Source: Parabacteroides sp. (lineage in GTDB: Bacteria > Bacteroidota > Bacteroidia > Bacteroidales > Tannerellaceae). Taken from it: DNA of 64,000 bases. The notes below the pieces were generated by a model that did not search any database, was not told where the DNA came from, and saw nothing but the letters and a program-made list of their open reading frames with translations. Of this stretch, positions 7,242 to 63,232 are shown in pieces. The stretch is from the NCBI GenBank assembly GCA_017937385.1, contig JAGBDR010000009.1:107721-171720 (forward strand), written 5' to 3'. The stretch's first letter is position 1; the number at the start of each line of letters is the position of its first letter. The position numbers and the translations under genes were made by a program.

Positions 7242-7306
7242 GATTTATGATTTCAGATTTATGATTTATGAAGAGTTGATAAATCATAAATCTGAAATCA
7301 TAAATC
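7242..7306. repeat. Perfect 28-bp inverted repeat built from 7-bp units (GATTTAT), 9-nt loop
   Basis: GATTTAT-GATTTCA-GATTTAT-GATTTAT (7242-7269) is the exact reverse complement of 7279-7306. Confidence 0.95.
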
Positions 7307-7329
7307 CCAAACTCCTCTAACAGATAAAT

Positions 7330-7767
7330 ATGAAGACATTAGGTTTATGTAGTGACCATGCAGGGTATGAACTGAAAGAATTCGTAAAACAAATACTCGA
7401 CTCGAAAGGGTTGGCCTATCGAGATTTCGGAACCTGCTCGACAGATAGTTGTGATTATCCCGATTACGCCCATCCGCTTGCCGAAGCAGTAGAAGCCGGC
7501 GAAGTATATCCCGGAATAGCAATCTGCGGAACCGGCAACGGCATCGCCATGACACTCAATAAACACCAGGGAATACGGGCCGCTCTGTGCTGGCAGGAAG
7601 AGATTGCACGCCTCGCCCGTGAGCACAATGATGCCAACGTACTTGTAATGCCCGGCAGATTTATCAGCCAAGAGGAAGCCACTCACACGGTCGAGGCCTT
7701 TCTGAACACTCCGTTCGAAGGCGGTCGACATCAGCGTAGGATCGACAAAATCCCTAAAATCAGGTAA
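7330..7767 (+). CDS. rpiB: Ribose-5-phosphate isomerase B
   Basis: SDHAG, DYPD, CGTGNG, ANK-like LNKHQGIRAA, AREHNDANVL, FEGGRHQRR. Confidence 0.96.
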   Translation: MKTLGLCSDHAGYELKEFVKQILDSKGLAYRDFGTCSTDSCDYPDYAHPLAEAVEAGEVYPGIAICGTGNGIAMTLNKHQGIRAALCWQEEIARLAREHNDANVLVMPGRFISQEEATHTVEAFLNTPFEGGRHQRRIDKIPKIR

Positions 7768-7776
7768 AACACTATT

Positions 7777-9453
7777 ATGGCAACATTAGACTTCATTGTT
7801 ATAGGGCTATTTGCTATAGCCCTAATTGGAATTATTGTATGGGTACTTAAACAAAAACAAAACAACTCCGCCGACTATTTCCTCGGCGGACGGGATGCCA
7901 CCTGGCTCGCCATCGGTGCATCCATTTTCGCCTCCAATATCGGTTCCGAACATCTGATCGGGCTGGCCGGAGCCGGAGCTTCCAGCGGTATGGCGATGGC
8001 TCATTGGGAAATCCAAGGATGGATGATTCTGATCCTCGGATGGGTATTCGTTCCTTTCTATACACGCAGCATGGTATACACGATGCCTGAGTTTCTGGAA
8101 AAACGGTATAACCCGCAATCCCGCACCATCCTCTCTTTCATCTCCTTAATCAGTTATGTATTGACCAAAGTAGCCGTTACGGTCTATGCCGGCGGGTTGG
8201 TATTCCAACAGGTTTTCGGCATCAAGGAGCTGTGGGGGATCGATTTCTTCTGGATTGCAGCGATCGGGCTGGTTTTGCTGACCGCTCTTTACACGATCGT
8301 TGGCGGAATGAAATCCGTTCTTTACACCTCTGTGCTCCAAACCCCTATCCTTCTGTTGGGCTCACTGATTATCCTCGTACTCGGCTTTAAGGCATTAGGC
8401 GGTTGGGATGAAATGATGGCGGCCTGTCGCTCCGTTGTCGTAAACGACTACGGCGATACCATGACACAACTGATCCGTGACAACCGCGACCCGCAATATC
8501 CGTGGCTCGGTGCGCTGATCGGCTCCTCTATCATCGGATTCTGGTACTGGTGTACCGACCAATACATCGTGCAGCGTGTCCTTTCAGGCAAAGACATGAA
8601 ACAAGCCCGCCGTGGCGCTATCTTCGGAGCCTACCTGAAATTGCTTCCAGTATTCCTCTTCCTGATTCCGGGAATGATCGCTTTTGCATTGAGCAAGAAC
8701 GGAGTGGCCATCAATGGCGAAGTATTCAAACTGTCCATTCCGGATGCAGCTTTCCCGACACTGGTAGCGAAATTGCTTCCGGCAGGCGTGAAAGGGCTTG
8801 TCGTATGTGGTATCCTGGCAGCCCTGATGAGCTCACTGGCCTCTCTGTTCAACTCGTCGGCGATGCTGTTCACCATCGACTTCTATAAACGTTTCAAACC
8901 GGAAACGCCCGAAAAGAAATTAGTTGTCATCGGCCAGATCGCAACGGTGGTAATCGTGATTTTAGGTATTCTCTGGATTCCGATCATGCGCAGTGTCGGA
9001 GATGTCCTCTATAATTACCTGCAAGACGTACAATCCGTATTGTCGCCGGGTATCGCCGCCGCATTCCTGTTAGGCATTTGCTGGAAACGAACTTCCGCCC
9101 AAGGAGGCATGTGGGGAATGCTGGCAGGCATCATCATCGGTATTACCCGTTTAGGTGCCAAAGTCTTTTACAGCAATACGGCCGACGCATCCGACAACCT
9201 GTTCAAAGCCCTGTTCTACGACATGAACTGGCTGTTCTTCTGCGGATGGATGTTCCTCTTCTGCATCGTCGTGACAATTGTCGTCAGCCTTTGCACGAAA
9301 GCCCCCGAAACAGCAAGAATACAAGGCTTAGTGTTCGGAACGGCAACCCCGGAAGAACGGGCCGCCACACGTGCCAGCTGGAACCATTGGGATGTGATCC
9401 ATTCCGCAATCATTTTAGGCATCACGGCTGCATTCTACTGGTATTTCTGGTAA
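7777..9453 (+). CDS. Sodium:solute symporter (SSS/SGLT family), probable arabinose permease
   Basis: SIFASNIGSEH, TMPEFLEKRY, WYWCTDQYIVQR, AALMSSL motifs; many TM segments; ara cluster context. Confidence 0.9.
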   Translation: MATLDFIVIGLFAIALIGIIVWVLKQKQNNSADYFLGGRDATWLAIGASIFASNIGSEHLIGLAGAGASSGMAMAHWEIQGWMILILGWVFVPFYTRSMVYTMPEFLEKRYNPQSRTILSFISLISYVLTKVAVTVYAGGLVFQQVFGIKELWGIDFFWIAAIGLVLLTALYTIVGGMKSVLYTSVLQTPILLLGSLIILVLGFKALGGWDEMMAACRSVVVNDYGDTMTQLIRDNRDPQYPWLGALIGSSIIGFWYWCTDQYIVQRVLSGKDMKQARRGAIFGAYLKLLPVFLFLIPGMIAFALSKNGVAINGEVFKLSIPDAAFPTLVAKLLPAGVKGLVVCGILAALMSSLASLFNSSAMLFTIDFYKRFKPETPEKKLVVIGQIATVVIVILGILWIPIMRSVGDVLYNYLQDVQSVLSPGIAAAFLLGICWKRTSAQGGMWGMLAGIIIGITRLGAKVFYSNTADASDNLFKALFYDMNWLFFCGWMFLFCIVVTIVVSLCTKAPETARIQGLVFGTATPEERAATRASWNHWDVIHSAIILGITAAFYWYFW

Positions 9454-9502
9454 CAGGTATAAACATACTTGTTACCATTTCCAGAGCTTTCAGGCATTCA
9501 TA

Positions 9503-12385
9503 CTATTTCCCGCAAACATCCTTAAACGGGCAATATGCGCAAGCTTTGCCGTTCGGGGTTTGGACGAAGGGGATTTCCGGATCGAAGATTTCATCCAAGC
9601 AATTCCGCAGACCGTTTTCAAACTCCGTGCGATAGTCGGCAAAGTCCAGGACCTGTTCCGTCTTGAACCGGTCCGTACGACGGTAAACAGCGGGATCGAA
9701 AGAGGGAGAAAAGAGGGTACGCATGTAATAGATGCCTGGTTGGATGGCGGCTGCCCCATACATCCAGGCATACATAAAGACCTGCATGACCGCTTTGGAA
9801 CGATCCGTTTCTTCCTTGTCGAAAAGGGATTCGACAGAGGTGAACTGCGTCGTTCCGCTTCCACTCTTATAGTCGATGATGCGGACAATGCCACGCACTT
9901 CGTCTATACGGTCGATGAATCCTTTCAACTGGATCTCGCTCTTATCCGTCAGCGGGAAGAGGCACTTGATTTTCTTTTCTGACTCGATATAGCGAAAGGG
10001 CGTCAGCTTGGCATCCCGTTCCAAAACTTTCTCCACATATTTGCGGATCATCTCGCCGATCAGGAAGTTCTGCCCGGTGAGCGGACGAACGACATCTGTC
10101 TTGAAGAAAATTTCGGCAAAGGCACGGGCAACCGCACCCGTCAGTTGCGGTGTATCTTTGCGGATCGCCTTCAGCAGGTCGGCCGTCACCATCTTGCCGC
10201 AGAAAGGTTGGTACAGTTCTTCCATCACCTTGTGCAGGATGCTCCCGAAGACATTGCTCTCGATCGTCTCGCTGACCTCCTCCTCTTCCCGTATCCCTTC
10301 GACCACGGAGAAATAGAATTTAAGCGGACAATCCAGATACGTATTGACCGCACTTGCCGATATTGCCCGCTCCCCGCCACGGCGGAAAGCCGCCAGACGG
10401 CTCATGACCTCCTCCGTCTTGGCCACCTGCAAAGCGGGTATCCTGGAAGAAGAGACGTTATAGACGACCAGCTTGTTCTGTATCGGTTCCTCATAATGAT
10501 AATGCAGTTGGTGCACAAAACGGCTGACCTCGCCTGTCTGCAACCCGTTGCTCCGGGTATCATAAAGCAGGCTGACATGGCTGGCACGATAAATCAACCG
10601 GTAGAAATGGTATGCCCAAACACTGTCCTGGTGCTCATAGGTCGGCAAACCGAAGCCTCGGCGAAGGTTATAAGGGATGAAAGAATTGGCCGCTTTCCTC
10701 AGCGGGAAGATCCCTTCATTCATCGAAAGGATGATCAAGCGGTCAAAGTCGAGCGCACGTGTCTCCAGAACCCCCATGATCTGCAAACCGGAAAGCGGTT
10801 CGCCGTGAAAAGGGATCGTAATCGTGTCTGTCACCCGTTTCAGCAACCGGAAATAGGTGTCGATTTTCATTTCTACATTCGCCTCCCGCATGACCTCCTT
10901 CATTCGGTTGACAGTGGCGAAATAGTGGAAGATAAACTCCTGTTCAATATCATTAATTGACAATTGACTATTGACTATTGACAATTCTTGGTCGTCCTTC
11001 TCCTTGTCAATTGCCCTATTGAGCTCCTGCAACACGTTGATCAAGTAATCGGAAAACGTTTCCACCGCAGTTACCGGAGTAAAGAGGATGGACAACAAAG
11101 GGGTCCGGTTCAGATCGTCATAAGATATGTAGATCTTGTTGTTTTCCGTAATGTCTTTTACCAGGCCGGCGACCACCTCCGGCGCGGTAGTCGAGATATA
11201 CCGGTGGTTCAAGATCGGCAAGACGTCCCGGAAATAGAACACCGGCTGCCGGTCCACATACCGGATATTTTTCTGCAAAGCCAGAATATACTCCATCAGA
11301 GAGGCGACCGGCGTACCGGCCAACGGGTATCCCATCGTCACGTTGATCCGCCGGATCTGTTCGGGGATGGCATTCAGGACCGGAATCAGCAAATGCTCGT
11401 CCGGCAGAATCACGGCCGTCCGCAATGCCTCTTCCGCGCTCATTTCATCTTCCTTGCAAAGCTCGCTCAAGATACGGTGCACTTGCTTGGCTTGACCGAT
11501 TCCGGAAGGGATGCCGATGACTTCAATGGACAATTGAGAATTGTCAATTGTCCATTGTCCATTGTCAATTGTCAATTGAGAGGGGAATTGCCGCAAATTG
11601 CGTTCCACAAAATAGGAGGCTTTGTTGTCCGGGTCCGTCACTTTCGGCGAGGCATAGTCCCAATAGAAATCGGCGATCTCCCGCCTTTGCAACTCAGAGA
11701 GGAAACGTTCCTCCGCCACAGAAAGGGCATTCAAACCAACAAACACAATTTTCACATAAGGAAGGTCACAACATTCGTTTTTCTCCATCTGCTCGACCAC
11801 TTCCTGGAAAATCATGCCCTCATATCCCTTGCCCTCGGCAGCAAGCGCCTCCCGCAAATCGATATACAAGGCGTATAAGATCTGCCAGACCGCCAAAAAC
11901 TGTTCCTGGTTTGGTGTATCTCCTTTCGGATAGAAAGAAGACCAGAAAGTCCGGATCGCCGCAATCTGTTCGGGACTCAGAAAATTGAAATCATTCTCAA
12001 TCTCACGCAGATCCGTCACGTTGGTGAAAAGCATACGGGCGTCAACCATATACTTGTCGATATCGTCGAAGTCATTCAACAGCATTTCACCCCAATAAAG
12101 GAACTCGTCGAACGTTTCGGATGAACCGCTACGGCGCAGATAAATATCATACAATTTGAACAACATACTGATCCGGTCCGCTGTCTGCTTCCCGCTCAAT
12201 TGTACAAACAAATCATTGATCGTCAGGATTGTCGGAGAGAAAAGCGGCTTCTCCGACACTTCCGACAGATATTTCTGGAAGAACAGCCCCGTACGGCGGT
12301 TCGGAAAGACAAAAGCCAACCGGCTGATTTCCGCCCCATATTTAGCATAAAAAAGGGAGGCAACCTGATATAAGAATGGTTTCAC
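9503..12385 (-). CDS. AddB/RexB-like PD-(D/E)XK nuclease with inactive helicase scaffold and Fe-S cysteines
   Basis: FVFPNRR, GLQIMGVLETR, SASAVNTYLDCPLKFY, GFIDRID...IIDYKSG, CAYCPFKDVC. Confidence 0.85.
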   Translation of the reverse strand: MKPFLYQVASLFYAKYGAEISRLAFVFPNRRTGLFFQKYLSEVSEKPLFSPTILTINDLFVQLSGKQTADRISMLFKLYDIYLRRSGSSETFDEFLYWGEMLLNDFDDIDKYMVDARMLFTNVTDLREIENDFNFLSPEQIAAIRTFWSSFYPKGDTPNQEQFLAVWQILYALYIDLREALAAEGKGYEGMIFQEVVEQMEKNECCDLPYVKIVFVGLNALSVAEERFLSELQRREIADFYWDYASPKVTDPDNKASYFVERNLRQFPSQLTIDNGQWTIDNSQLSIEVIGIPSGIGQAKQVHRILSELCKEDEMSAEEALRTAVILPDEHLLIPVLNAIPEQIRRINVTMGYPLAGTPVASLMEYILALQKNIRYVDRQPVFYFRDVLPILNHRYISTTAPEVVAGLVKDITENNKIYISYDDLNRTPLLSILFTPVTAVETFSDYLINVLQELNRAIDKEKDDQELSIVNSQLSINDIEQEFIFHYFATVNRMKEVMREANVEMKIDTYFRLLKRVTDTITIPFHGEPLSGLQIMGVLETRALDFDRLIILSMNEGIFPLRKAANSFIPYNLRRGFGLPTYEHQDSVWAYHFYRLIYRASHVSLLYDTRSNGLQTGEVSRFVHQLHYHYEEPIQNKLVVYNVSSSRIPALQVAKTEEVMSRLAAFRRGGERAISASAVNTYLDCPLKFYFSVVEGIREEEEVSETIESNVFGSILHKVMEELYQPFCGKMVTADLLKAIRKDTPQLTGAVARAFAEIFFKTDVVRPLTGQNFLIGEMIRKYVEKVLERDAKLTPFRYIESEKKIKCLFPLTDKSEIQLKGFIDRIDEVRGIVRIIDYKSGSGTTQFTSVESLFDKEETDRSKAVMQVFMYAWMYGAAAIQPGIYYMRTLFSPSFDPAVYRRTDRFKTEQVLDFADYRTEFENGLRNCLDEIFDPEIPFVQTPNGKACAYCPFKDVCGK
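10955..10986. repeat. Intragenic 7-bp tandem repeat (AATTGAC/TATTGAC), in frame in the AddB-like gene
   Basis: AATTGAC AATTGAC TATTGAC TATTGAC AATT; encodes LSIVNSQLSIN. Confidence 0.85.
11525..11580. repeat. Intragenic 7-bp tandem repeat (8 units, AATTGTC type), in frame in the AddB-like gene
   Basis: AATGGAC AATTGAG AATTGTC AATTGTC CATTGTC CATTGTC AATTGTC AATTGAG; encodes SQLTIDNGQWTIDNSQLSI. Confidence 0.9.
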
Positions 12386-12409
12386 TGTATCTTCTCTATT
12401 TTTAATTCT

Positions 12410-13420: not shown

Positions 13421-13456
13421 ATTCTGATATTTTTAGACAAAAGTAAGGAAAGGCTG

Positions 13457-13522
13457 ACAAAAGTACAAAAGAACAAAAGGACAAAATAGGCTTCTTATGT
13501 TCTTTTGTTTTTATGTCCTTTT
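13457..13522. repeat. Hairpin of 8-bp tandem units (ACAAAAGN / reverse complement)
   Basis: ACAAAAGT ACAAAAGA ACAAAAGG ACAAAATA, then TATGTTCT TTTGTTTT TATGTCCT TTT. Confidence 0.65.
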
Positions 13523-13536
13523 ATCAAAAAATATCC

Positions 13537-13590
13537 GATGCCCATGTATTCTCCATTCCATGCCCATGCATTTCCAATTGCATGGGACAC
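13537..13590. repeat. 22-bp-period CATGCCCATG array
   Basis: GATGCCCATG at 13537, CATGCCCATG at 13559, degenerate CATGGGACAC at 13581. Confidence 0.7.
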
Positions 13591-13662
13591 CAAACCTTGC
13601 AGCCAAACAGGAAAGATAGGAAAGCAAACAGAATATTCTAAAAACAAACGATCCGAATAAAA

Positions 13663-13735
13663 CAAAAAAAGGCTATCCGTCACGGACAGCCAATCTTCAT
13701 TGTTAACCTTAAATCTAATACCATGAAAAACACAG
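13663..13735 (-). ncRNA. Candidate ~70-nt small RNA with own promoter and intrinsic terminator
   Basis: Minus-strand TATATTTG -7 box (13738-13745), then GTGTTTTTCATGGTATTAGATTTAAGGTTAACAATGAAGATT, then GGCTGTCCGTGACGGATAGCC-T7; resembles a multicopy Bacteroidales intergenic motif from memory. Confidence 0.65.
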
Positions 13736-14064
13736 TGCAAATATAGAGCTTTTATGTTATACAGCATACAGTTTTATTTGGAAATCTCACTTGTTTAAAT
13801 CTATTTAACTAAAACATGCTATAAAACATAACTAATCAGCATTAGCTACTACGAATGGAAACCAATTTCGATCCATCTCCTGATTCAGCAGAAAAGAAAT
13901 ACAAAGACAAAATCATCTTTCATTCTGATGTATTATACAAATAATATTATTCATATTATCACAATAATAAGCCATATACTTTCAAATAGAAACATACACA
14001 ACCTTAAAACAAAAAAGCTCCATTCTATTCGCCGGACCAGTATTACATTTTGAAACTTATATAA

Positions 14065-18661: not shown

Positions 18662-18790
18662 GACATCCCGATGTCACCTGAAACGACATCCCGATGTGGC
18701 AGGCAGGGACATACCGATGTCGCAAGCAGGGACATCCCGATGTCGCAAGCAGGGACATACCGATGTCACAGGCAGGGACATACCGATGTC
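18662..18790. repeat. Six-copy 23-bp-period array of a 14-bp palindrome GACAT(A/C)CCGATGTC
   Basis: Cores at 18662, 18685, 18708, 18731, 18754, 18777 separated by 9-nt near-identical linkers. Confidence 0.95.
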
Positions 18791-18859
18791 GCCGGACCGC
18801 CGGCTGCGACTCCATATTTGAAACAGGATAAACAACAATCAATCAAAAGAATAAGACAA

Positions 18860-20305
18860 ATGGGAAATCCAAAAGCATTCCTCACCATACACCGGCAAGA
18901 AGCCGGCTATCGCCCCGTCCACGAACGGATCGACGACTTCAGCGAAGTCGAACAAACGCTCAACAGCAGCGACCGCCGCACGCAGGCCTCCCGTTGCATG
19001 GACTGCGGCGTACCCTTCTGCCACTGGGCCTGTCCGTTGGGCAACAAACAACCCGAATGGCAAGACCTGCTCTACAAAGGCAAATGGCGCGAAGCCTTCC
19101 ACATACTGGAACAGACCTGCGACTTTCCGGAGTTTACCGGACGCATCTGCCCCGCCCTCTGCGAGAAGAGCTGTGTACTGAAATTGAGTTGCGACGAACC
19201 TGTCACGATACGCGAGAACGAAGCGGCCATCGTGGAAGCGGCTTTCCGCGAAGGATACATCCAACCGGTCCGCCCCGTCCGCAACGGCAAGCGGGTGGCC
19301 GTGATCGGAAGCGGTCCTGCCGGATTGGCAGCCGCGAACCAACTGAACCGCCGGGGCTATGAAGTGACGGTATTCGAAAAATACGAACTGCCGGGTGGCC
19401 TGCTCCGGTTCGGTATTCCGAACTTCAAATTAGGGAAGAACATCATCGACCGGCGCATCCGGCTGATGGAACAGGAAGGAATCATCTTCAAGGTCAACAC
19501 GCTGGTCGGAAGCGACGTATCGGCCAAAGAAATCGTTTCGACATTCGATGCCGTCTGTGTCGCCATCGGTTCCGAAGTGCCGCGCGACCTCCCCATCGAA
19601 GGGCGTAACCTGAAAGGGGTTCATTTCGCCCTCGACCTGTTGTCGCAACAGAACCGCCTCCTCGAAGGCATCGCCATCCCGCCCCAAAGTATCATCGACT
19701 GCAAGGGAAAGAAAGTACTCGTCATCGGTGGCGGCGACACGGGAAGCGATTGTGTCGGGACCGCCAACCGCCACAAAGCGACAAGCGTGACACAAATCGA
19801 GATCATGCCCCAGCCGCCCATCGGACAGAACCCGGCAACTCCCTGGCCTCTGTACCCGCAAGTGCTGAAAACGAGCAGCAGCCACGAAGAGGGATGCGTC
19901 CGTCGTTGGAACTTAGCCTCCGTCCGTTTTGTAGGCGACAAGAACACGTTGAAAGGCGTCGAAGTCGAAGAGGTGGAATGGCTGCCGGCTCTGGAAGGAG
20001 AACGGCCGGAAATGCGCAGGAGCGGACGCACGGAGGTGATCGAAGCCGACCTCGTGTTTCTCGCGATGGGTTTCATCCACCCCGAACAGGAAGGCCTCAT
20101 CAAAGAACTGTCCCTCGCTACCGACGCACGCGGCAACATCGCCGTCGATCCGGCCACCAACCGGATAGCCGGCACCAACATCTTCGCCGCAGGCGATGCC
20201 ATCAGCGGAGCCAGCCTCGTCGTCCGCGCCATGGCCTCCGGCCGCAAGACAGCCGTCGCCATCGACGTGGCAATTGGCAATGGACAATTGAAAATTGAAA
20301 ATTAA
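18860..20305 (+). CDS. gltD: Glutamate synthase small subunit
   Basis: MGNPKAF start, CMDCGVPFCHWACP, GSGPAGL, IGGGDTGSDC, FAAGDA; the ORF-track 5' extension (18671) only reads through the repeat array. Confidence 0.96.
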   Translation: MGNPKAFLTIHRQEAGYRPVHERIDDFSEVEQTLNSSDRRTQASRCMDCGVPFCHWACPLGNKQPEWQDLLYKGKWREAFHILEQTCDFPEFTGRICPALCEKSCVLKLSCDEPVTIRENEAAIVEAAFREGYIQPVRPVRNGKRVAVIGSGPAGLAAANQLNRRGYEVTVFEKYELPGGLLRFGIPNFKLGKNIIDRRIRLMEQEGIIFKVNTLVGSDVSAKEIVSTFDAVCVAIGSEVPRDLPIEGRNLKGVHFALDLLSQQNRLLEGIAIPPQSIIDCKGKKVLVIGGGDTGSDCVGTANRHKATSVTQIEIMPQPPIGQNPATPWPLYPQVLKTSSSHEEGCVRRWNLASVRFVGDKNTLKGVEVEEVEWLPALEGERPEMRRSGRTEVIEADLVFLAMGFIHPEQEGLIKELSLATDARGNIAVDPATNRIAGTNIFAAGDAISGASLVVRAMASGRKTAVAIDVAIGNGQLKIEN

Positions 20306-20385
20306 AAAAGATAAGAGAAACAAAGAAACAAACAATATGTTCAACCCCCCAATTGTCAATTGTCCATTGTCAATTGTCAATTGAA
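20272..20385. repeat. Inverted pair of 7-bp tandem tracts spanning the gltD stop and asnB leader
   Basis: AATTGGC AATGGAC AATTGAA AATTGAA AATTAA (20272-20305) versus AATTGTC AATTGTC CATTGTC AATTGTC AATTGAA (20351-20385). Confidence 0.85.
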
Positions 20386-28520: not shown

Positions 28521-28583
28521 ATTGATTTTCCTTTTTCTATTCGATCATCCCAAAAAGTTTCCCCTTAAGAGAAACCCAAATTC

Positions 28584-28662
28584 CATAACGAGGGAACTTG
28601 AGTTCCATAGGCATGAAACTTGAGTCCCATGCCCATGAGATTCGAGTCCCATGCCCATGGAA
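28584..28662. repeat. 22-bp-period CATGCCCATG array
   Basis: Cores at 28606 (CATAGGCATG), 28628, 28650, with a degenerate copy at 28584. Confidence 0.8.
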
Positions 28663-39596: not shown

Positions 39597-39611
39597 ACAG
39601 CCCCACCGGAG

Positions 39612-39726
39612 AGCTGCCGCAGCCGTTGTCCAAGATCTGCTGCAGCTCTCCTCCGACATCTGCTGCAGCTCCCGAAAGAGATCTGCAGCAGCTCTCGGAA
39701 GGCATCTGCAGCAGCTCTCGGAAGAT
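39612..39726. repeat. 23-bp-period array of ATCTGC(T/A)GCAGCTC
   Basis: Cores at 39635, 39658, 39681, 39704, plus a degenerate copy at 39612. Confidence 0.9.
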
Positions 39727-39768: not shown

Positions 39769-41355
39769 ATGATAAACGACAAGATAAAAACAGTGGGCCT
39801 ACTGGCACTCTTCGCACTCCTGCCGGCTTGTGCGGATGACGCGCCATTCGACAAGGGCCACGAGCCGGAGAGCGGAACACACGAGTACTACCTCCGTCTG
39901 ACACTCCGGCACCCGGAAGCCGGCCTCCCGACCCGGTCGACCCCGACCGGAGGCGAACCAGGCGACGGACACGAGCCGGGGCAAGACCACGAGACACGCA
40001 TCGACGACCTGACGTTGCTCTTCTACCGGGGCACGGACGGCGTGAACTCGGACGCCTCGACCCCGATCGACAAAATCATCTACCTCGACCGCGACGCGAT
40101 GGAGGGCGACAACCGTACCGAACCGGTGCCGGTGAACCTGCCGGCAGGCGAATACGACCTGCTCACGGTGGCCAACAGCGGCGACCTGCGCCCGCAATTG
40201 CAGGGCAAGACCCTCGGAGGCGTGCGCGACTACCTGTTGCAACAGGCATGGACGGAAGACGAAGAGGGCCGGTGCTCACGCTTCGTCATGACCTCCGACG
40301 GACATACCCCCGACCGCGTCAGCATCTGCAACCTCAACACGACCGACAACCCCGCCTCGGCAACCGTCGAAGTGGAACGCCTCGCGGCACGTATCGACTA
40401 CCGCACGCGGCACGAAACCTACACGGTCGATGATGCCACCTACGGACATGCCGCCGCCTCGATCACCGGCGCCGTCGTGCTCAACAAGATGAAGGCCGGC
40501 TCCTTCCTGCTGAAACGCACCGCCGCGCCTGACAACGGGCGGCTGACGGCGGCTTCGGCTCTCACCTACCTCGGCGACGAACGGCCGGCGGAAGGAGGCG
40601 TGCAGCGCAACTACGTGGCGGACCCCTGGAGCCTGCAGAAAAAAGCCGCGCCCGTCAACGCCGCACTGGCAAAGCTCTACGACAACTACTATACGTCGTT
40701 CGGCCCCTCGCAAGCCGCCTGGGAAGCCGCCATCCGGACCGGCACGGCGGCCGACGGCTGGCAACGGCTCGACTACACGCAGGAAAACACCATGAGCCGC
40801 GAGGCGCAATCGGACGCCTACCGAACGATGGTGGTCTTCCAGGCACGCTACACCCCCGAAGGGTATGAACCGGGACAGACCTTCTACCGCGTGAAAGGCC
40901 GCATCTTCCCGACCCGCGCCGAAGCGGAAGCGGCGGCCCAGGGGACAGGCGCGTTGGTGCGCGAATACCACGACGGGCTGTGCTACTACGTCTGGCGCGT
41001 GCGCCACTCCAACGACGGCAACGACGCCACGCAGGGCATCATGGAATATGCCATCGTGCGCAACAACATCTACCGCCTCCTGGTCGCCTCGATCGACGGA
41101 TTAGGCGATGAAGTCCCGTTCCCCGAACCGGACGGGAAAGACCCGGACCCGGTCGACCCTGACGACCCCGATCCCGATGAACCGGATCCCGACGAGCCTG
41201 ACCCCGACAATCCGGACCCGGACAACCCCGATCCGGACGAACCTGATCCGGACAACCCGGACCCCGATAATCCCGACCCCGAAGAACCGCCTATCACAAT
41301 CGTCGTGACGGTGGAAGAATGGACCCAATTAAACGAACATGACATTTATCTATAA
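39769..41355 (+). CDS. Type V pilus major subunit, Mfa1-like lipoprotein
   Basis: Lipobox LLPAC, PTR|S maturation-like site, VERLAARID, YAIVRNNIYRL.V..I.GLG, Pro/Asp-rich linker, terminal VVTVEEW strand. Confidence 0.88.
   Translation: MINDKIKTVGLLALFALLPACADDAPFDKGHEPESGTHEYYLRLTLRHPEAGLPTRSTPTGGEPGDGHEPGQDHETRIDDLTLLFYRGTDGVNSDASTPIDKIIYLDRDAMEGDNRTEPVPVNLPAGEYDLLTVANSGDLRPQLQGKTLGGVRDYLLQQAWTEDEEGRCSRFVMTSDGHTPDRVSICNLNTTDNPASATVEVERLAARIDYRTRHETYTVDDATYGHAAASITGAVVLNKMKAGSFLLKRTAAPDNGRLTAASALTYLGDERPAEGGVQRNYVADPWSLQKKAAPVNAALAKLYDNYYTSFGPSQAAWEAAIRTGTAADGWQRLDYTQENTMSREAQSDAYRTMVVFQARYTPEGYEPGQTFYRVKGRIFPTRAEAEAAAQGTGALVREYHDGLCYYVWRVRHSNDGNDATQGIMEYAIVRNNIYRLLVASIDGLGDEVPFPEPDGKDPDPVDPDDPDPDEPDPDEPDPDNPDPDNPDPDEPDPDNPDPDNPDPEEPPITIVVTVEEWTQLNEHDIYL
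41140..41289 (+). repeat. Degenerate 15-bp coding repeat encoding PD(N/E)PD units
   Basis: DPDPVDPDDPDPDEPDPDEPDPDNPDPDNPDPDEPDPDNPDPDNPDPEEPP. Confidence 0.9.
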
Positions 41356-51897: not shown

Positions 51898-52746
51898 ATG
51901 AAAAAGATCTATTATATCCTTTCAGGCTTATTGGCCTGCTTTTCTCCAGCTTTCGGACAGAGCGATGCTGACACCGTAACCTCCGCATCGGAACAGGTTC
52001 CTGCGAAAATAGTCACTATCAGCACGAGTGCCGGGACCTTGAAAGCCAAACTGTATAACGACGTTCCGAACCACGTCCGGACCTTTATCGAACGTGCCAA
52101 ACAGGGCGAATACAACGGGACATTGTTCACCCGCGTGCTCCCTGAATTCATGATACAGGGCGGCGCCCCCGATTCGCGCAATGCTCCGGCCGGTGCCCGT
52201 TGCGGTTTCGGAGACCGCAATTCGGAAATCATGCCGGAGATAAAGCCTCACCACTTCAACAAACGAGGCGCATTGGCTGCTCCCCGCCAGAACGACGACA
52301 TCAACCCGCAAAAGAAATCAGATATGTCGCAATTCTATATCGTACAAGGGAAAGTCTACACCAACGGCGAACTGGATACGCTGGAAATGATTGCCAACCA
52401 GGATATCAAAGAAAAGGCCATGCAGAAGTTCTTCTATCCTGTCCGCGCCGAACTGCGTATGCAGAAAGCCAGCAACAAACGCGAATACCAGAAACGCCTG
52501 CGCAAGATCAATGCCCAAGTCGACTCGATGGTGCGTGCCACACCCGGCCACTTGCTGTTCACCGAAGAACAACGGAAAGCCTACACCACCGAAGGCGGCT
52601 GCCACCATTTAGACGGTCATTATACCGTATATGGCGAACTCATTGAAGGATTCGACGTACTCGATGCCATCGCCGGGCAACCTCGCGACGCGTATGACCG
52701 CCCGAAAAAAGACATCCGGATTATTCAATTGACAATTGAGAATTGA
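51898..52746 (+). CDS. Periplasmic cyclophilin-type peptidyl-prolyl isomerase
   Basis: Y.GTLFTRV...FMIQGG, RGALAAPR, SQFYIV, HLDGHYTVYGE. Confidence 0.9.
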   Translation: MKKIYYILSGLLACFSPAFGQSDADTVTSASEQVPAKIVTISTSAGTLKAKLYNDVPNHVRTFIERAKQGEYNGTLFTRVLPEFMIQGGAPDSRNAPAGARCGFGDRNSEIMPEIKPHHFNKRGALAAPRQNDDINPQKKSDMSQFYIVQGKVYTNGELDTLEMIANQDIKEKAMQKFFYPVRAELRMQKASNKREYQKRLRKINAQVDSMVRATPGHLLFTEEQRKAYTTEGGCHHLDGHYTVYGELIEGFDVLDAIAGQPRDAYDRPKKDIRIIQLTIEN

Positions 52747-52754
52747 CAATTTAT
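52727..52754 (+). repeat. 7-bp tandem tract supplying the cyclophilin stop codon
   Basis: AATTGAC AATTGAG AATTGAC AATTTAT; reads QLTIEN*. Confidence 0.75.
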
Positions 52755-55207: not shown

Positions 55208-55942
55208 CTACTCTTCGCCTTCGTTATCATCTTCCTTCATATTATGGAACACATTCTGGACATCTTCGTCTTCTTCCAGCTTTTCAATCAGCTTTTCAAT
55301 TGATTCTCGCTGTTCGGGAGTCACCTCTTTCACATCGTTCGGAATGCGGACAAATTCGCTGCTGGTGATTTCATATCCATTCTCTTCCAGATATTTCTGG
55401 ATCGACGAGTTCTGGGCAAACTCACCAGAGAGAACGACTTCGTCTTCATCTTCCTCCACTTCATCGACTCCATAGTCGATCAGTTCCAACTCAAGATCTT
55501 CCAACGACATGCCCTCTTTCTTTGTGATATGGAAAACACATTTGTGCTCGAACAAGAACTCCAAGCTACCGGATGTGCCCAAAGAACCACCGTTCTTGTT
55601 GAAATAACTACGCACGTTTGCGACCGTACGAGTCGTGTTGTCGGTTGCCGTCTCCACGAAGATAGCGATACCGAAAGGACCATATCCTTCGTAGTTCATT
55701 TCCTTATAATCGGTAAAATCTTTAGAAACAGCCCGCTTGATCGCACGTTCGACATTTTCTTTCGGCATGTTCTCTTTTTTGGCAGTCTGCATCAATACAC
55801 GCAAACGCGGATTGTTTTCAGGCTCCGGTCCACCCTGCTTGGCGCATATCGTAATTTCTTTACCCAATTTAGTAAATACACGGGCCATATTGCCCCAACG
55901 CTTAAACTTTCTCGCTTTGCGAAACTCAAACGCTCTTCCCAT
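55208..55942 (-). CDS. yebC: YebC/PmpR-family protein
   Basis: MGRAFEFRK, NPRLR, MPKENVERAIK, YEGYGP.G, TDN.TRT, DDVQNVFHN-like. Confidence 0.95.
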   Translation of the reverse strand: MGRAFEFRKARKFKRWGNMARVFTKLGKEITICAKQGGPEPENNPRLRVLMQTAKKENMPKENVERAIKRAVSKDFTDYKEMNYEGYGPFGIAIFVETATDNTTRTVANVRSYFNKNGGSLGTSGSLEFLFEHKCVFHITKKEGMSLEDLELELIDYGVDEVEEDEDEVVLSGEFAQNSSIQKYLEENGYEITSSEFVRIPNDVKEVTPEQRESIEKLIEKLEEDEDVQNVFHNMKEDDNEGEE

Positions 55943-56040
55943 GATGTATGATTTATGATTTATAATTTATGATTTATGAAAGGATTTATGATTTATGATT
56001 TATTTTCGACGCATAAATCATAAATCATAAATCAAGAATC
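55943..56040. repeat. GATTTAT heptamer tract plus 21-bp-arm hairpin filling the pheT-yebC spacer
   Basis: Five units at 55943-55977; (GATTTAT)3 at 55983-56003, 9-nt loop, (ATAAATC)3 at 56013-56033. Confidence 0.92.
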
Positions 56041-56045
56041 CGTTA

Positions 56046-58511: not shown

Positions 58512-58628
58512 CGCTTTAAAATTTATTCAGTAAAGAGACGGGGGCCGTCCGGCCTACGCCAAATTGACGGACAAAAGTACAAATAATTATTTAATATGTA
58601 GAACAACAGCAAAACGAAAATGAGTTCC

Positions 58629-58708
58629 CATGCCTATGAACGGTCTATTCCATGCCCATGAAACGAAAGTTCCATGCCTATGGAACGAAAATCCCATGCC
58701 CATGGAAC
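58629..58708. repeat. 22-bp-period CATGCC(C/T)ATG array (4 copies)
   Basis: Cores at 58629, 58651, 58673, 58695. Confidence 0.88.
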
Positions 58709-58766
58709 TTTATTTTGCAGACTATTGGAAATCTCCTACATTTGCATTCTAAATCAGAAACAAAAT

Positions 58767-59447
58767 ATGATGCGCATAGACATACTGACCGTACTTCCCG
58801 AAATGATCGAAGGGATGGTAAACTGCTCCATTGTGAAACGGGCACAAGACAAAGGCTTGGCTGAAATACATCTACATAACCTGCGGGACTACACGACCAA
58901 CAAATGGCGGCGTGTAGACGATTATCCATTCGGAGGAGAAGCCGGCATGGTCATGCAGATCGAGCCCATCGACCGGGCCATCTCTGCATTGAAAAGCGAA
59001 AGGGATTATGATGAAGTCATTTATACATCGCCGGACGGGGAAACGTTCAACCAGCCGATGGCAAACAGTATGTCGATGCTGGACAACCTGATTATCCTTT
59101 GCGGACATTACAAAGGAATCGACTACCGCATCCGCGAACATCTGATAACAAAGGAAATATCTGTCGGCGACTATGTCCTGACAGGCGGCGAACTGGCTGC
59201 CGCCATCATCACGGATGCCGTCGTGCGCCTGATTCCCGGAGCAATCGGCGACGAACAAAGCGCCCTCTCCGATTCGTTCCAGGATAACCTGCTGGCTCCT
59301 CCGGTCTATACCCGGCCGGCCGACTACAACGGCTGGAAAGTGCCCGATGTCCTCCTGTCCGGGCACCAGCGGAAAATCGAAGAATGGCGCCTGCAACAGG
59401 CACAGGAACGGACAGCCCGCCTGCGCCCCGATTTATTGAACATCTAA
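58767..59447 (+). CDS. trmD: tRNA (guanine-N1)-methyltransferase
   Basis: [42 protein letters not shown](H) motifs. Confidence 0.96.
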
Positions 59448-59457
59448 AATTAATAAC

Positions 59458-62064
59458 ATGAAAATGAAACATCTGACGGTAGCTGCATTGACCTTATTAT
59501 TGTCTGTTTCTTGCAGCCAGAAACAAGAAGATTATCCGTTTCGGAACCCCGATCTCCCGATCGACGAACGTATAGACGACCTCTTGAAGCGCCTGACCGC
59601 CGAAGAGAAAATCGGACAAATGATGAACACGACTCCGGCCATCGAACGCCTCGGCATTCCCGAATATGACTGGTGGAACGAAGCCCTGCATGGAGTCGCA
59701 CGTGCCGGAAAAGCGACTGTTTTCCCGCAAGCGATCGCAATGGCGGCAACGTTCGATGAAGAAGCCTTGCACAAGACATTCACGATGGTGAGCGACGAAG
59801 CCCGCGCCAAATACCATCAGTATCAAAAAGACAAAGAATACGACCGCTACAAAGGATTGACCTTCTGGACCCCGAATATCAACATTTTCCGTGATCCCCG
59901 TTGGGGCCGCGGCATGGAAACATACGGAGAAGACCCGTATCTGACGGAACGGATGGGCGTTGCCGTCGTGAAAGGGTTGCAGGGGGATAATCCGAAATAC
60001 TTCAAGACACACGCTTGCGCCAAGCATTATGCGGTCCATAGCGGTCCGGAATGGAACCGGCATGAGTTTGATGTTGCCGTGACGCCTCGCGACTTATGGC
60101 AAACGTACCTGCCGGCATTCGAGACTTTGGTAAAGGAAGGCAACGTACAGGAAGTCATGTGCGCCTACAACCGCTATCAAGGCAAACCCTGTTGCAGTAG
60201 CGACAGATTGCTCATCGACATCCTTCGGAACAGTTGGGGATATGACAACATCATCCTTTCAGACTGCGGCGCGATCAACGATTTCTGGGAACGGGACAAA
60301 CGTACGCCCCGCCACGAAACACATCCCGATGCGGAAAGCGCTTCTGCCGATGCCGTCCTGAGCGGAACGGATTTGGAATGCGGAAACAGTTACCGGTCTT
60401 TGGTCAAAGCCTTGAAAGACGGTAAAATAACCGAAAAAGACCTGGATGTTTCCCTCCGTCGCTTGCTGAAAGGGCGCTTTGAGTTGGGTATGTTCGATCC
60501 GGACGAACGGGTTCCATACGCCCAAATCCCGTACAGCGTGGTGGAAAGCCCCGAACATGTGGCACAGGCGCTTGAAATGGCGCACAAGAGCATGGTGTTG
60601 CTGAAGAACAAGAACAACACGCTGCCGTTAAGCAAATCGATCCGGAAAATCGCGGTTGTCGGCCCGAATGCCGCCGACTCGACCATGTTGTGGGCGAACT
60701 ACAACGGTTTCCCGACACATACCGTAACGATCTTGGAGGGTATCCGCAACAAAGTGCCCGACGCAGAAGTCATCTACGAATTGGGATGCAACCACGCCGC
60801 CGACTTTGTCATCCAGGACTTGGGTAGCCACATCACCTCTCCTGCCGGACAAGGATTCGCCTCCGAATTTTTCAACAATACGGAATTCAAAGGGGAAGCC
60901 GTCTACAAAGGTCTGGCAAGCCAACTGCATTATACGACCGGTGGAAACACTCAGTTCGCGCCGAATGTAAACCTGACGAATTTCACGGCCCGCTTCACCG
61001 GCGAGTTTGAAGCGCCCGAAACGGAACAGGTCGAAATCAAACTGTCCGGCAACGACGCTTTCCGCCTCTTCATCGGAGATGAAAAAGTGGCCGAGGTATG
61101 GGAAAACAAATACGGAGCGGAAAAGAGCTATATGCTGAATGCGGAAAAGGGAAAGAAATATCCGATCAAGATCGAATATATGCAACGCACAGGCAGCGCC
61201 GACCTCAACTTCCTGATCGGTACGCGGCGGCCGGTCGACTATGCCGCTACAGCCGCCAAAGTCAAAGATGCGGATGTGATCGTCTATGTCGGAGGTATTT
61301 CGCCTCGCTTGGAAGGGGAAGAAATGCCGGTCAATGTGGAAGGTTTCAAGAAAGGAGACCGCACCCATATCGAAATCCCCCAAGTGCAGCAAGAGATGGT
61401 AAAGGCATTGAAAGCGACAGGCAAACCGGTCGTTTACGTGCTTTGTACGGGTAGCGCCTTGGCTTTGAACTGGGAAGAGGCCAACCTCGATGCCATCCTG
61501 AATGCCTGGTATGGCGGACAGGAAGCCGGAACAGCGGTTGCCGACATCCTGTTTGGCGACTACAACCCGGCGGGCCGTCTGCCGATCACCTTCTATAAAT
61601 CGGTCGACCAGTTGCCGGACTTCGAAGATTACAGCATGAAAGGCCGGACCTACCGCTATATGACCGAAACGCCGCTTTACCCGTTCGGTTACGGTTTGAG
61701 CTACACAGACTTTGCCTATCGGGACGCAAAGTTGTCTTCTGGCAAGATTGCCAAAGACCAGTCCGTCACACTGTCATTCGACATCGCCAACACCGGCAAA
61801 ATGGATGGTGACGAAGTCGCACAAGTCTACATCCAAAACCCGAACGATCCGGCAGGACCGATCAAGGCGCTGAAAGCCTTCAAACGTGTCCACGTAAAAG
61901 CCGGCGACAGCCAGAAAGTCAACATCGAACTGGCTCCCGAAGCCTTCCACTCCTTCAACGACAACACCCAGACCATGGAAGTCCGCCCCGGAAAGTACCA
62001 AATACTCTACGGCGGTTCATCCAGTGACAAGGCGTTACAGAAATTGGAGTTGACAATCGAATAA
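59458..62064 (+). CDS. GH3 beta-glucosidase/xylosidase lipoprotein with PA14 and Fn3-like domains
   Basis: Lipobox SVSC, WWNEALHGV, WTPNINIFRDPRWGRG.ETYGEDP, KHYAVH, SDCGA nucleophile, LPITFY. Confidence 0.93.
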   Translation: MKMKHLTVAALTLLLSVSCSQKQEDYPFRNPDLPIDERIDDLLKRLTAEEKIGQMMNTTPAIERLGIPEYDWWNEALHGVARAGKATVFPQAIAMAATFDEEALHKTFTMVSDEARAKYHQYQKDKEYDRYKGLTFWTPNINIFRDPRWGRGMETYGEDPYLTERMGVAVVKGLQGDNPKYFKTHACAKHYAVHSGPEWNRHEFDVAVTPRDLWQTYLPAFETLVKEGNVQEVMCAYNRYQGKPCCSSDRLLIDILRNSWGYDNIILSDCGAINDFWERDKRTPRHETHPDAESASADAVLSGTDLECGNSYRSLVKALKDGKITEKDLDVSLRRLLKGRFELGMFDPDERVPYAQIPYSVVESPEHVAQALEMAHKSMVLLKNKNNTLPLSKSIRKIAVVGPNAADSTMLWANYNGFPTHTVTILEGIRNKVPDAEVIYELGCNHAADFVIQDLGSHITSPAGQGFASEFFNNTEFKGEAVYKGLASQLHYTTGGNTQFAPNVNLTNFTARFTGEFEAPETEQVEIKLSGNDAFRLFIGDEKVAEVWENKYGAEKSYMLNAEKGKKYPIKIEYMQRTGSADLNFLIGTRRPVDYAATAAKVKDADVIVYVGGISPRLEGEEMPVNVEGFKKGDRTHIEIPQVQQEMVKALKATGKPVVYVLCTGSALALNWEEANLDAILNAWYGGQEAGTAVADILFGDYNPAGRLPITFYKSVDQLPDFEDYSMKGRTYRYMTETPLYPFGYGLSYTDFAYRDAKLSSGKIAKDQSVTLSFDIANTGKMDGDEVAQVYIQNPNDPAGPIKALKAFKRVHVKAGDSQKVNIELAPEAFHSFNDNTQTMEVRPGKYQILYGGSSSDKALQKLELTIE

Positions 62065-62069
62065 AAAAC

Positions 62070-62117
62070 AAATGCCGCAGACCTCCGGATCATCCGGAAA
62101 AAGCCTGCGGCATTTTA
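62070..62117. terminator. Bidirectional terminator
   Basis: AAATGCCGCAG...CTGCGGCATTT. Confidence 0.75.
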
Positions 62118-62133
62118 TGTCACATAGGTTTTT

Positions 62134-63108
62134 CTATCCGATATACGTTTCCATGAACTTGGCGCCTGGAACCGGTGAGATCGTCACGATATCCGTATCG
62201 GCCGGGATCAGGACGGTTTGTCCTTGGTGGATATACATTTCATTGCCTTTGTTGTCGCGGATAGAGGCTTTTCCTTCCATACAGATATAGACGACAAAAG
62301 AATCCAGTTCGGAGAAATCGCGAACCATGATCGTATCGATATCCAGCAAATTGGTGGTAAAATACTTGCATGCGGCCAGTTCTACCGTCGCGTTCGTATG
62401 CGCTTTGTAATGCGTGCGGTAGTCCGGATACAACGTATAATCGATCGCATCCTTTGCCAGTTCGGTGTGCAACTCACGCCCTTTGCCGTCCGGTCCTTTA
62501 CGGTCGTAATCATATATACGGTAGGTGATGTTGCTCGTCTGTTGAATTTCAGCAATGAAACAACCGGCACCGATGGCATGTACGCGGCCGGCAGGAAGAA
62601 AGAAGACATCGCCCGGGTTCACCTCGTAACGCTGCAACACGTCCATGATCGTATTGTTCTCAACCCGTTTCACATACTCATCCGCATCGATCTGTGTTGA
62701 AAAGCCGGAATACAAACCAGCCCCTTTGGCAGCCTTGATCACATACCACATTTCCGTCTTGCCGAAAGAATTGTGGCGTTTCTTAGCCAATTCATCATCC
62801 GGATGAACCTGGATAGACAAATCATCACGCGCATCGATAAACTTGATCAGCAAAGGGAATGTGGAGCCGAACTGTTCGACCACTTTTTCTCCAAGCAATT
62901 GCTTGCCATACGTGCGGATCAGTTCGTCCAGCGTTTTGCCTTCAAGAGCGCCATTATCTACAACGGAATAATTTCCTTCCACATGTGAAAGTTCCCAACT
63001 TTCACCGATACCATTCTGCACCGGAGCAATTCCCTTGAACGGGCAGATGTCAGAGCCTCCCCAGATAATATTCTTGAGGATAGGCTTAAATGTCATTGGA
63101 TATAACAT
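62134..63108 (-). CDS. manA: Type I mannose-6-phosphate isomerase
   Basis: WGG, IGESWE, FPLLIKFIDA..DLSIQVHP, KTEMWY, PAG.VHAIG, EIQQTSNITYR.YDY; true start MLYP at 63108. Confidence 0.9.
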   Translation of the reverse strand: MLYPMTFKPILKNIIWGGSDICPFKGIAPVQNGIGESWELSHVEGNYSVVDNGALEGKTLDELIRTYGKQLLGEKVVEQFGSTFPLLIKFIDARDDLSIQVHPDDELAKKRHNSFGKTEMWYVIKAAKGAGLYSGFSTQIDADEYVKRVENNTIMDVLQRYEVNPGDVFFLPAGRVHAIGAGCFIAEIQQTSNITYRIYDYDRKGPDGKGRELHTELAKDAIDYTLYPDYRTHYKAHTNATVELAACKYFTTNLLDIDTIMVRDFSELDSFVVYICMEGKASIRDNKGNEMYIHQGQTVLIPADTDIVTISPVPGAKFMETYIG

Positions 63109-63111
63109 GGT

Positions 63112-63232
63112 GATTGACAATTTATGATTTATGATTTGTGATTTATGATTTGTAATTTGTGATTTTGTGTTCAGCCTGTCACGCCGGATTTGATCCGGCA
63201 TCCCATAAATCATAAATCACAAATCATAAATC
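63112..63232. repeat. Heptamer hairpin (GATTT(A/G)T / A(T/C)AAATC) with a nested REP-like palindrome in the loop
   Basis: Left units 63119-63167, right units 63205-63232; loop contains GCCGGAT-TTG-ATCCGGC. Confidence 0.9.

Follow-up and report, generated by a model that had tools for sequence, protein, structure and literature searches.

Heptamer hairpins in the window and across the genome

The 64,000-nt stretch analysed here (the window), which corresponds to C94:107721-171720 of a 3.73-Mb, 128-contig Parabacteroides assembly (90.5% complete), contains short arrays of tandem heptamers, AATTGAC (type A) or GATTTAT (type B), at the edges of genes. The question they raise is what kind of element they represent, and how they came to lie at gene junctions. 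Seven loci had been singled out in the original prediction; Tandem Repeats Finder, which supplied the tract positions, and reading of the sequence located all of them (Table 1), and their predicted position next to stop and start codons of housekeeping operons was borne out, the neighbours being tkt/rpiB, gltD/asnB, a PPIase gene, yebC/pheT and the gene for mannose-6-P isomerase (pmi). The evidence presented below argues that the A and B elements are probably gene-less members of a class of palindromic cassettes which, in related species, carry a gene of the PF05635 family.

The whole genome was found to contain 228 exact tracts with a period of 7, as against 33 with a period of 6 and four with a period of 8. 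Exact tracts of at least two copies numbered 214 for AATTGAC and 205 for GATTTAT, while the next unit reached 13 and shuffled unrelated heptamers gave 0-1 matches each. A tolerant scan returned 503 arms (131 A+, 132 A−, 120 B+ and 120 B−), with a median length of ∼4-5 units of 7 nt, distributed over 304 loci (81 loci per Mb) and present in 268 of the 2131 intergenic segments (12.6%, or about one in eight). More than half of the 304 loci were inverted pairs in which an (AATTGAC)n or (GATTTAT)n array comes first and the complementary array second; this order was seen 162 times and the reverse six times. The description of a dispersed family at gene junctions, made up mainly of inverted arms, therefore holds genome-wide. 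For the simple pairs (n = 118), the predicted stem had a median of −29 kcal/mol, and 81% were below −20.

The two heptamers had been taken to form a single family (RATTKAY), a view that did not survive. The in-phase runs of A into B at 52741 and 63112 are real, and such mixing on the same strand is rare (2 of 304 loci); mixed A/B pairs, which cannot fold, were found 8 times when ∼71 were expected under free assortment, making them about ninefold rarer. In a sample of 61 Tannerellaceae genomes, A arrays were present in 12, belonging to four genera, while B arrays occurred in this genome and in Parabacteroides sp. ASD2025 (G050), with a single match in G021; BLAST extended the range of B elements to a small clade of closely related genomes (G079, G081, G082 and G083). 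Since their species distributions differ, A and B are separate families rather than one. Their loops differ too. B elements have a sharply peaked 9-nt loop (consensus CATCGACGC) that occurs in either orientation, with no significant relation to the direction of transcription (p = 0.10), and each B locus has a private variant unit with a mirrored counterpart in the opposite arm. The loops of A elements are longer, and GC hairpins resembling terminators, or other repeats, occur in some. The elements are not covered by any Rfam family.

Position and orientation relative to genes

Gene calls came from a simple home-made caller based on codon usage (2802 genes, 86% coding), which also supplied the start codons. 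On this basis, 305 of the 503 arms were intergenic (12% expected at random), 132 overlapped the 3′-end of a gene (1.8% expected) and 26 were internal to a gene (77% expected). Their placement is thus not that of randomly scattered microsatellites, a possibility raised in the original prediction. At 127 co-directional junctions, the left arm mostly started within ∼10 nt of the upstream stop codon or contained it, the right arm mostly ended 0-15 nt ahead of the first in-frame ATG, and the gene-proximal end of the arm was always the same end. Solo arms were also oriented: those of type A lay against the upstream stop and read AAUUGAC in the mRNA (36:12), and those of type B lay against the downstream ATG and read AUAAAUC (39:9). 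Divergent junctions were depleted of elements, and convergent junctions bore them at about the background rate.

About 130 proteins, ∼4-5% of the total, have repeat-encoded tails. Those ending in an A arm (…IDN or …QLTMDN before the stop) number about 90; a B+ arm supplies the end (…DL) of 33, and a B− arm that (…HKS) of 16. The clear gene-internal cases were all of type A and were translated in frame, which is possible because variants of the CAATGGA type eliminate the TGA codons.

In relatives the same arms flank PF05635 genes

The PF05635 family comprises four-helix-bundle proteins of ∼120 aa (23S rRNA intervening-sequence (IVS) protein/Avd family). Its genes were found in 31 of the 61 family genomes, with a maximum of eight per relative. 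Exact period-7 arrays lay within ∼100 nt of the PF05635 gene at 22 of the 30 loci returned, and inverted arms surrounded an open reading frame (ORF) of ∼120 aa at 21 of 28 loci above the Pfam cut-off and at 6 of 7 genus loci, that is, at 27 of 35. In the arms the tandem unit is 7 nt long, or 8-9 nt at a few loci; the arms are 350-470 nt apart, their heptamer varying by locus (GTAGTTA, GAGGGTA, ATAGGAG, GAATTAC and others). An earlier lead, according to which heptamer arms flank such genes in Bacteroidota, was thereby substantiated in Tannerellaceae, A and B arms included; the accompanying idea that the gene-bearing form is the autonomous one is a conjecture. Inspection of what lies between inverted arms, a check proposed at the outset, accordingly had two outcomes: no gene in this genome and a PF05635 gene in the relatives.

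Type-A arms were present at PF05635 loci in G023 (L156), G043 (L163) and G069 (L177, same genus), and near-A arms in G008 (L164). On the transcribed strand, L156 reads: upstream stop, 10 nt, (AAUUGAC)n, ORF, (GUCAAUU)n, 12 nt, downstream ATG. This layout is the one seen in the gene-less A hairpins. The order stop, arm, ORF, arm, ATG, with the three genes co-oriented, was shared by L156 and L182. A scan for the pattern of two B arms separated by 380-410 nt returned seven loci, six of them with a Pfam-confirmed PF05635 ORF; the hosts were P. massiliensis (L182), Bacteroides oleiciplenus, Mediterranea massiliensis and three metagenome-assembled genomes, assigned to Bacteroidaceae, Verrucomicrobia and Bacteroidetes. 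In several B-armed cassettes (e.g. L183:2068-2476 and L182:2112-2524) the heptamer forms both ends of the ORF, whose start codon is the ATG in the last GATTTATG unit and which terminates (…HKS) within the CAT AAA TCA TAA of the right arm.

Cassettes and gene-less hairpins share junctions

Sixteen distinct junctions carry a PF05635 cassette in some relative and are syntenic in this genome. Here, five of them bear A/B pairs, two bear A/B solo arms, two bear another heptamer hairpin or tract, and seven are empty. A/B arms were therefore present at 7 of 16 cassette junctions, compared with a background of 12.6% (p = 0.002). One junction is occupied by a B-armed cassette in P. massiliensis, by a GAATTAC-armed cassette in G069 (the two proteins being 72% identical) and by a two-unit solo B arm here. 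At the serC-side junction, Mediterranea has a B-armed cassette and G042 one with TAATTGT arms; in this genome the junction holds a B hairpin that encloses no gene. A third heptamer family, (AGTTGAR)n, was also noticed: it forms a gene-less hairpin at C3:57313-57389, where G023 has an A-armed PF05635 cassette, it provides the arms around a PF05635 gene in G081 (L174), and, in G081 and G050, inserts derived from it (…ESGELKVES…LSTFNSQLS…) are read in frame within the AddB-like gene.

Orthologous junctions in other species

The GltD proteins of P. hominis, P. massiliensis and Parabacteroides sp. ASD2025 share 92-93% identity with the one encoded here. The relatives are 10-15% divergent in DNA, so the exact borders of insertions are unreadable. 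A comparison of orthologous junctions, a check suggested beforehand for strains and made here across species, revealed filled, differently filled and empty versions. At the strain level, a look-up of exact proteins returned matches only to the same strain and to contigs breaking at the repeat. The 7242 element is likewise a breakpoint in public short-read contigs of this strain, and in the present assembly 16 of the 256 contig ends have a heptamer arm within 60 nt (e.g. in C16, C55, C92, C93 and C97); these repeats therefore fragment assemblies.

The junction between tkt and rpiB bears a B hairpin in this genome and in G079, G081 and G083, an array of 22-23-bp palindromic units in G050 and G080, and a plain GC hairpin followed by a T run in other species; some hairpin was present in every species examined. 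Its edges (…gcataagaaac and cctctaacagataaaGATG; window 7240-7330, orthologues L082-L092) are conserved, and the hairpin-forming insert differs in almost every species. The junction acts as a kind of conserved 'hairpin slot'. Stems of the four B-bearing species are 28-32 bp long with 0-1 mismatch, despite their different units, which are mirrored between the arms (GAUUUCA/UGAAAUC, AAUUUAU/AUAAAUU, AAUUUCA/UGAAAUU), and the 9-10-nt loop is inverted in two of the four. The same compensatory changes in the arms and the same loop inversion were observed at the pmi junction, which has orthologous B hairpins in G050, G081, G082 and G083 and is empty in G006 and G069.

At the yebC-pheT junction, the relatives have only a short degenerate heptamer tract ahead of the ATG; for this reason, the full hairpin with a canonical loop found here is a gain in this lineage. 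The gltD-asnB junction has A arms in this genome; P. massiliensis has a B− tract at this position, ASD2025 and others have (TCAATTW)n, and in P. goldsteinii the position is empty. In relatives, the PPIase ends in ...IIKVTVDN with a single CAATTGA at the stop, or in arrays of other lengths. An alignment of the AddB-like gene with those of three relatives revealed two hypervariable sites, with different repeat-derived peptides in each of the four species.

Origin of the gene-less hairpins

Two features of the IVS-like cassette are present in the A and B elements: a long, near-perfect inverted-repeat stem and tandem heptamers within it. The PF05635/S23p ORF in the loop is missing here and occurs in relatives with the same A and B arms; insertion into an rRNA helix was not seen, all the copies in the window lying between or inside protein-coding genes. 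As their loops hold no PF05635 ORF, the elements of the window are classed as gene-less derivatives or relatives of the cassette, not as full members. Each of the two families would consist of copies, amplified or decayed and without the gene, of a single master cassette bearing arms of its type; such masters would still be present in G069 (A) and P. massiliensis (B). Template switching or conversion at the palindrome would keep the arms complementary at the DNA level, and solo arms would be deletion remnants, retained where they now provide a stop codon (A) or an AU-rich leader before an ATG (B). The elements are presumably co-transcribed with their host operons, and RNase III (the genome has an rnc gene) could cut the 28-35-bp stem, by analogy with the heptamer stem of the Coxiella 23S IVS, which would render an insertion at a cistron boundary nearly harmless.

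Several points weigh against such an origin. Searches of the whole genome found no target duplication, conserved flank or flank motif at the ends of the elements, and no multi-copy transposase, the multi-copy genes being only NtrC-like regulators and conjugative-transposon genes (TraG-like and a neighbour); nor does this genome have a gene of the RAYT/Y1_Tnp type (PF01797; REP-associated tyrosine transposase, REP standing for repetitive extragenic palindromic). The predicted absence of a transposase and of target duplications was in this way upheld. No PF05635 gene or remnant was found in this genome either, the best hit of a search for decayed remnants in long loops having an E-value of 2.7 and not lying in a loop. 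Across genomes, PF05635 genes accompany A arrays in 10 of 12 cases and are present in 21 of the 49 genomes lacking them (p = 0.02, kinship ignored). At shared junctions the heptamer type mostly differs between species, and the slot may be merely permissive. The A loops are unique (no similar pairs among 40 long loops) and A arms complement their own partner no better than arms from other loci, so A elements do not look like unit-copied MITEs (transposable elements of the miniature inverted-repeat type). Lastly, since relatives hold no more than eight PF05635 genes, the ∼300 copies cannot all be scars of deletions in situ; gene-less copies must therefore multiply by some additional route. Homology-seeded copying at existing arrays, as the gain at yebC-pheT suggests, is one candidate; another is a PF05635 protein, now lost, that would have acted in trans. 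The latter can be stated more specifically: PF05635 pentamers would be the word-specific partner of the heptamer hairpins, each protein lineage recognizing a 7-nt word of its own and favouring the copying or upkeep of any hairpin that bears it, and gene-less hairpins would have been amplified in trans, in a MITE-like manner, and stranded when the master was lost. We put this forward tentatively, as a possibility and not as the expected outcome; if true, it would explain the excess of heptamers at bacterial gene boundaries and tie it to rRNA intervening sequences.

It is unlikely, in our view, that the arrays are heptameric simple sequence repeats (SSRs) grown in place by polymerase slippage and kept because they bind S1, a cold-shock protein or a nucleoid protein, a role put forward for TAACTGA in Beggiatoaceae and for GGGAATC in Xanthomonas, with PF05635 genes merely tolerated between them. 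The same anatomy has been published for other heptamers, as in Xanthomonas (PMC4692102), TAACTGA repeats precede start codons (PMC4679880), Geobacter has families of heptanucleotides (PMC2700814), the PPIase tail appears to have grown from a native ...GAC AAT TGA stop, relatives have degenerate solo tracts ahead of ATGs where full hairpins are found here, and solo B arms are strand-specific and abut the ATG, all of which is in keeping with slippage. However, heptamers occurring singly show no enrichment away from the arrays, and arm-free intergenic DNA lacks any signal at period 7; the 9-nt loop common to B elements in either orientation indicates that whole elements were copied; the arm types within pairs are matched, as the scarcity of hybrids attests; the distribution among species is patchy and burst-like; and an armed state in 27 of 35 PF05635 genes goes beyond mere tolerance. 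Selection by the host for intercistronic RNA hairpins, acting as processing or stability sites or in translational coupling, with the stem hiding an AU-rich landing site until the terminating ribosome melts it, seems to us quite unlikely as the main cause. To our knowledge, initiation in Bacteroidota is not led by Shine-Dalgarno sequences, and the stem brings the stop and start codons side by side at its base; the strength of the predicted stems, the presence of some hairpin at tkt-rpiB in every species examined, the compensatory changes that keep stems paired across species, and the depletion of divergent junctions would all fit such a role. Yet convergent junctions carry elements at about the background rate, 26 arms are translated within ORFs, hybrid A/B pairs cannot fold, most related species lack elements at the same junctions, and loop flipping is a behaviour of palindromes at the DNA level. 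Mismatches in the stems, counted genome-wide in the sense orientation, were balanced between G.U (90) and A.C (83), and selection on the stem at the RNA level was rejected on this count; because of this balance, complementarity looks like something upheld in the DNA, or inherited, and not like the product of selection on the sense RNA.

Mobilization of palindromes resembling REP sequences or bacterial interspersed mosaic elements (BIMEs) by a RAYT transposase (Y1, IS200/IS605-type) is very improbable. The elements are extragenic palindromes arranged as inverted pairs at gene ends, and among the 61 Tannerellaceae genomes Y1_Tnp genes were commoner in those with A arrays (10 of 12 vs 17 of 49; p = 0.003, kinship ignored), but the present genome, which has the highest load, has none, heptamer arrays flank none of the 10 Y1_Tnp genes examined in A-positive genomes, and no conserved tetranucleotide or guide motif occurs at the ends of the elements. 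These results are most consistent with the idea that the A and B hairpins are gene-less kin of the PF05635 cassettes.

Structure of the elements in the window and other repeats

The coordinates of the window elements are collected in Table 1. The four pairs have predicted energies of −27 to −47 kcal/mol (z −4.5 to −10), while the solo arms have no fold. The hairpin after tkt is composed of (GATTTAT)4, the 9-nt loop GAAGAGTTG and (ATAAATC)4, and its variant unit GATTTCA is mirrored as TGAAATC in the opposite arm; that between pheT and yebC contains two (GATTTAT)n arrays, the canonical loop TTTCGACGC and (ATAAATC)3. The pmi hairpin has an A-like first unit, GATTGAC, and a B-like unit, AATTTAT, follows the PPIase arm in phase. 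The tail encoded by the left arm at gltD replaces the usual GltD end (...KYLRDK), and most homologues align to residues 1-469 of 481 only; this arm pairs with the right one over an A-rich loop of 40-55 nt. The AddB-like gene (960 aa; 9503-12385, minus strand) has two type-A insertions, and in the mini-hairpin the TGA stops are eliminated by CAATGGA and AATTCT variants.

Table 1. Heptamer elements and other repeat features located in the window
Feature	Position	Strand	Context	Predicted fold (kcal/mol; z)
Type-B hairpin	7242..7306	+	Between transketolase gene (tkt; stop 7237-7239) and rpiB (ATG 7330)	−36; −10
Solo type-A tract	10955..10986	−	In frame within AddB-like PD-(D/E)XK nuclease gene; encodes ...LSIVNSQLS...	
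Type-A mini-hairpin	11523..11582	−	In frame in AddB-like gene; encodes QLTIDNGQWTIDNSQLS	−23.9; −4.6
Type-A left arm	20268..20308	+	Gives the final 12 codons of GltD (...AIDVAIGNGQLKIEN) and its TAA stop	−39; −5.5 (with right arm)
Type-A right arm, (CAATTGT)n	20350..20385	+	Ends 15 nt ahead of asnB ATG (20401)	
Solo type-A arm	52726..52751	+	C-terminus (...IIQLTIEN) and stop of cyclophilin-type PPIase	
Type-B hairpin	55941..56034	−	Between pheT stop (56046) and yebC ATG (55942), both genes on minus strand	
Type-B hairpin	63111..63232	−	Between stop (63236) of preceding gene and mannose-6-P isomerase ATG (63109)	−46.6; −7.6
Small GC-rich stem-loop, GCCGGAT-TTG-ATCCGGC	63183..63199		Within loop of the 63111..63232 hairpin; missing from orthologous elements	
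22-23-bp palindromic arrays	983-1051, 5057-5122, 13538-13584, 18662-18792, 28581-28659, 39610-39725, 58623-58708			

A second kind of intergenic repeat consists of arrays with a period of 22-23 bp and a short palindrome in each unit (CATGGGCATG, GACAT-CCCG-ATGTC, CTGCAG). Arrays of this appearance are those that occupy the tkt-rpiB slot in G050 and G080, and they were also found within the loops of two B hairpins (C88:6564 and C90:135701). Positions 13661-13733 on the minus strand match the Bacteroidetes FopS small RNA family (RF04319; 76.6 bits, gathering score 56). A GC-rich tandem repeat with periods of 15, 30, 45 and 60 nt (GACCCCGACAACCCG…) at 41154-41288 lies inside the ORF 39769-41355 and would encode a proline/aspartate-rich repeat. 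Three palindromes of 6 bp are strongly avoided genome-wide (observed/expected 0.09 for CATATG, 0.17 for CTCGAG and 0.18 for GCGCGC), which suggests restriction-modification pressure.

Other assignments were considered for the heptamer elements and set aside. A composite element, with arms 250-6000 nt apart around a gene, is not supported by the arm order ("+...−" only 7 times, "−+" 89 times), and no candidate gene was found inside. As a restriction target, CAATTG is neither avoided nor enriched (observed/expected 0.93). Assignment as MITEs was dropped given the lack of target-site duplications, the unique A loops and a conserved 9-nt loop in type B only. Nor are the elements intrinsic terminators: their stems are AT-rich and their flanks have no T or A run beyond partial repeat units, the terminator-like GC hairpins mentioned above being separate structures that sit in some loops. 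Membership of the REP/RAYT class was rejected, there being no PF01797 gene here and no arrays beside the ten Y1 genes of A-positive relatives.

Comparison with known systems

Families of heptamers at gene boundaries in Xanthomonas, cyanobacteria, Beggiatoaceae and Geobacter have so far had no assigned origin or partner protein, and we know of no function assigned to rRNA intervening sequences and the PF05635 protein in ∼30 years. The present genome is an extreme, clean case for joining the two. A search of a library of papers found none linking gene-less families of heptamer hairpins to PF05635 cassettes at operon junctions, and a search on the exact heptamer strings returned no relevant paper; the published arm-only families (Xanthomonas, Beggiatoaceae, Geobacter) are none of them linked to PF05635. 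The link makes it testable whether the four-helix-bundle protein acts on heptamer hairpins, in a genus of gut commensals for which genetic tools exist. It also bears on the handling of polycistronic mRNA in Bacteroidota and on annotation, as regards gene ends, start sites and assembly breaks.

REP/BIME sequences share with the A and B elements a high copy number, the palindromic and extragenic character, the location at gene ends, often as inverted pairs, and the differences between related species at the same site. In the elements described here, however, there is no RAYT, nor any linkage of RAYTs to arrays in relatives, and the arms are tandem arrays instead of a fixed hairpin with a conserved tetranucleotide. 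Rickettsia palindromic elements insert in frame in protein-coding genes and are translated as extra peptide segments. The A arms within genes resemble them in being palindromic repeats translated in frame, but the Rickettsia elements are of unit length with a conserved sequence, are not tandem heptamers and are not centred on junctions.

Heptanucleotide repeat families are also found in Geobacter (PMC2700814). The TAACTGA repeats of marine Beggiatoaceae, cyanobacteria and some Bacteroidetes lie 1 nt upstream of start codons (PMC4679880); like these and the cyanobacterial STRR sequences, the elements reported here include lineage-specific, sense-oriented arrays directly before start codons, are patchy across phyla and are few in ORFs, but TAACTGA arrays are nearly all direct (1 inverted pair in 170 sets), while over half of the loci here are inverted pairs. 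The closer parallel among dispersed SSRs is the GGGAATC family of Xanthomonas, with 70-75 inverted pairs that adjoin stop codons on the sense strand and, on the antisense strand, lie upstream of ORFs (PMC4692102). Intergenic heptamer arrays of that family and of the GGGGAYT repeats of Nostoc number in the hundreds, and many of them form convergent inverted pairs (PMC4692102). The A and B elements have the features of the Xanthomonas class: they are intergenic, lie near or overlap stops on the sense strand, precede starts on the antisense strand, are enriched between co-directional ORFs, and keep their positions between species while length and sequence vary. The Xanthomonas repeats differ in being G-rich and discussed as formers of G-quadruplexes, impossible for the AT-rich elements described here, and no gene family is tied to them in PMC4692102; moreover, two families coexist in the present genome.

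The system most like the full cassette is the ORF-bearing 23S rRNA IVS of Coxiella and Leptospira (PMC4990558). In Coxiella burnetii, the IVS (helix 45) has a 28-bp stem containing strain-variable tandem heptamers and a loop with an S23p/PF05635 ORF; RNase III cuts within the stem at the first heptamer, and the element has been proposed to be, or to have been, mobile (PMC4990558). Both systems have a long, near-perfect terminal inverted repeat (28 bp in the IVS), tandem heptamers in the stem, which in the 5′-arm of the IVS vary in number between strains, and, in the full form, a PF05635/S23p gene in the loop; a transposase is known for neither. The IVS stem is a substrate of RNase III, and by analogy the stems of the elements described here may be cleaved as well. 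In contrast to the IVS, a single copy in an rRNA helix, the elements of this genome lie at the cistron junctions of mRNAs, sometimes in ORFs, have a gene-less loop, and reach ∼300 copies in two arm families.

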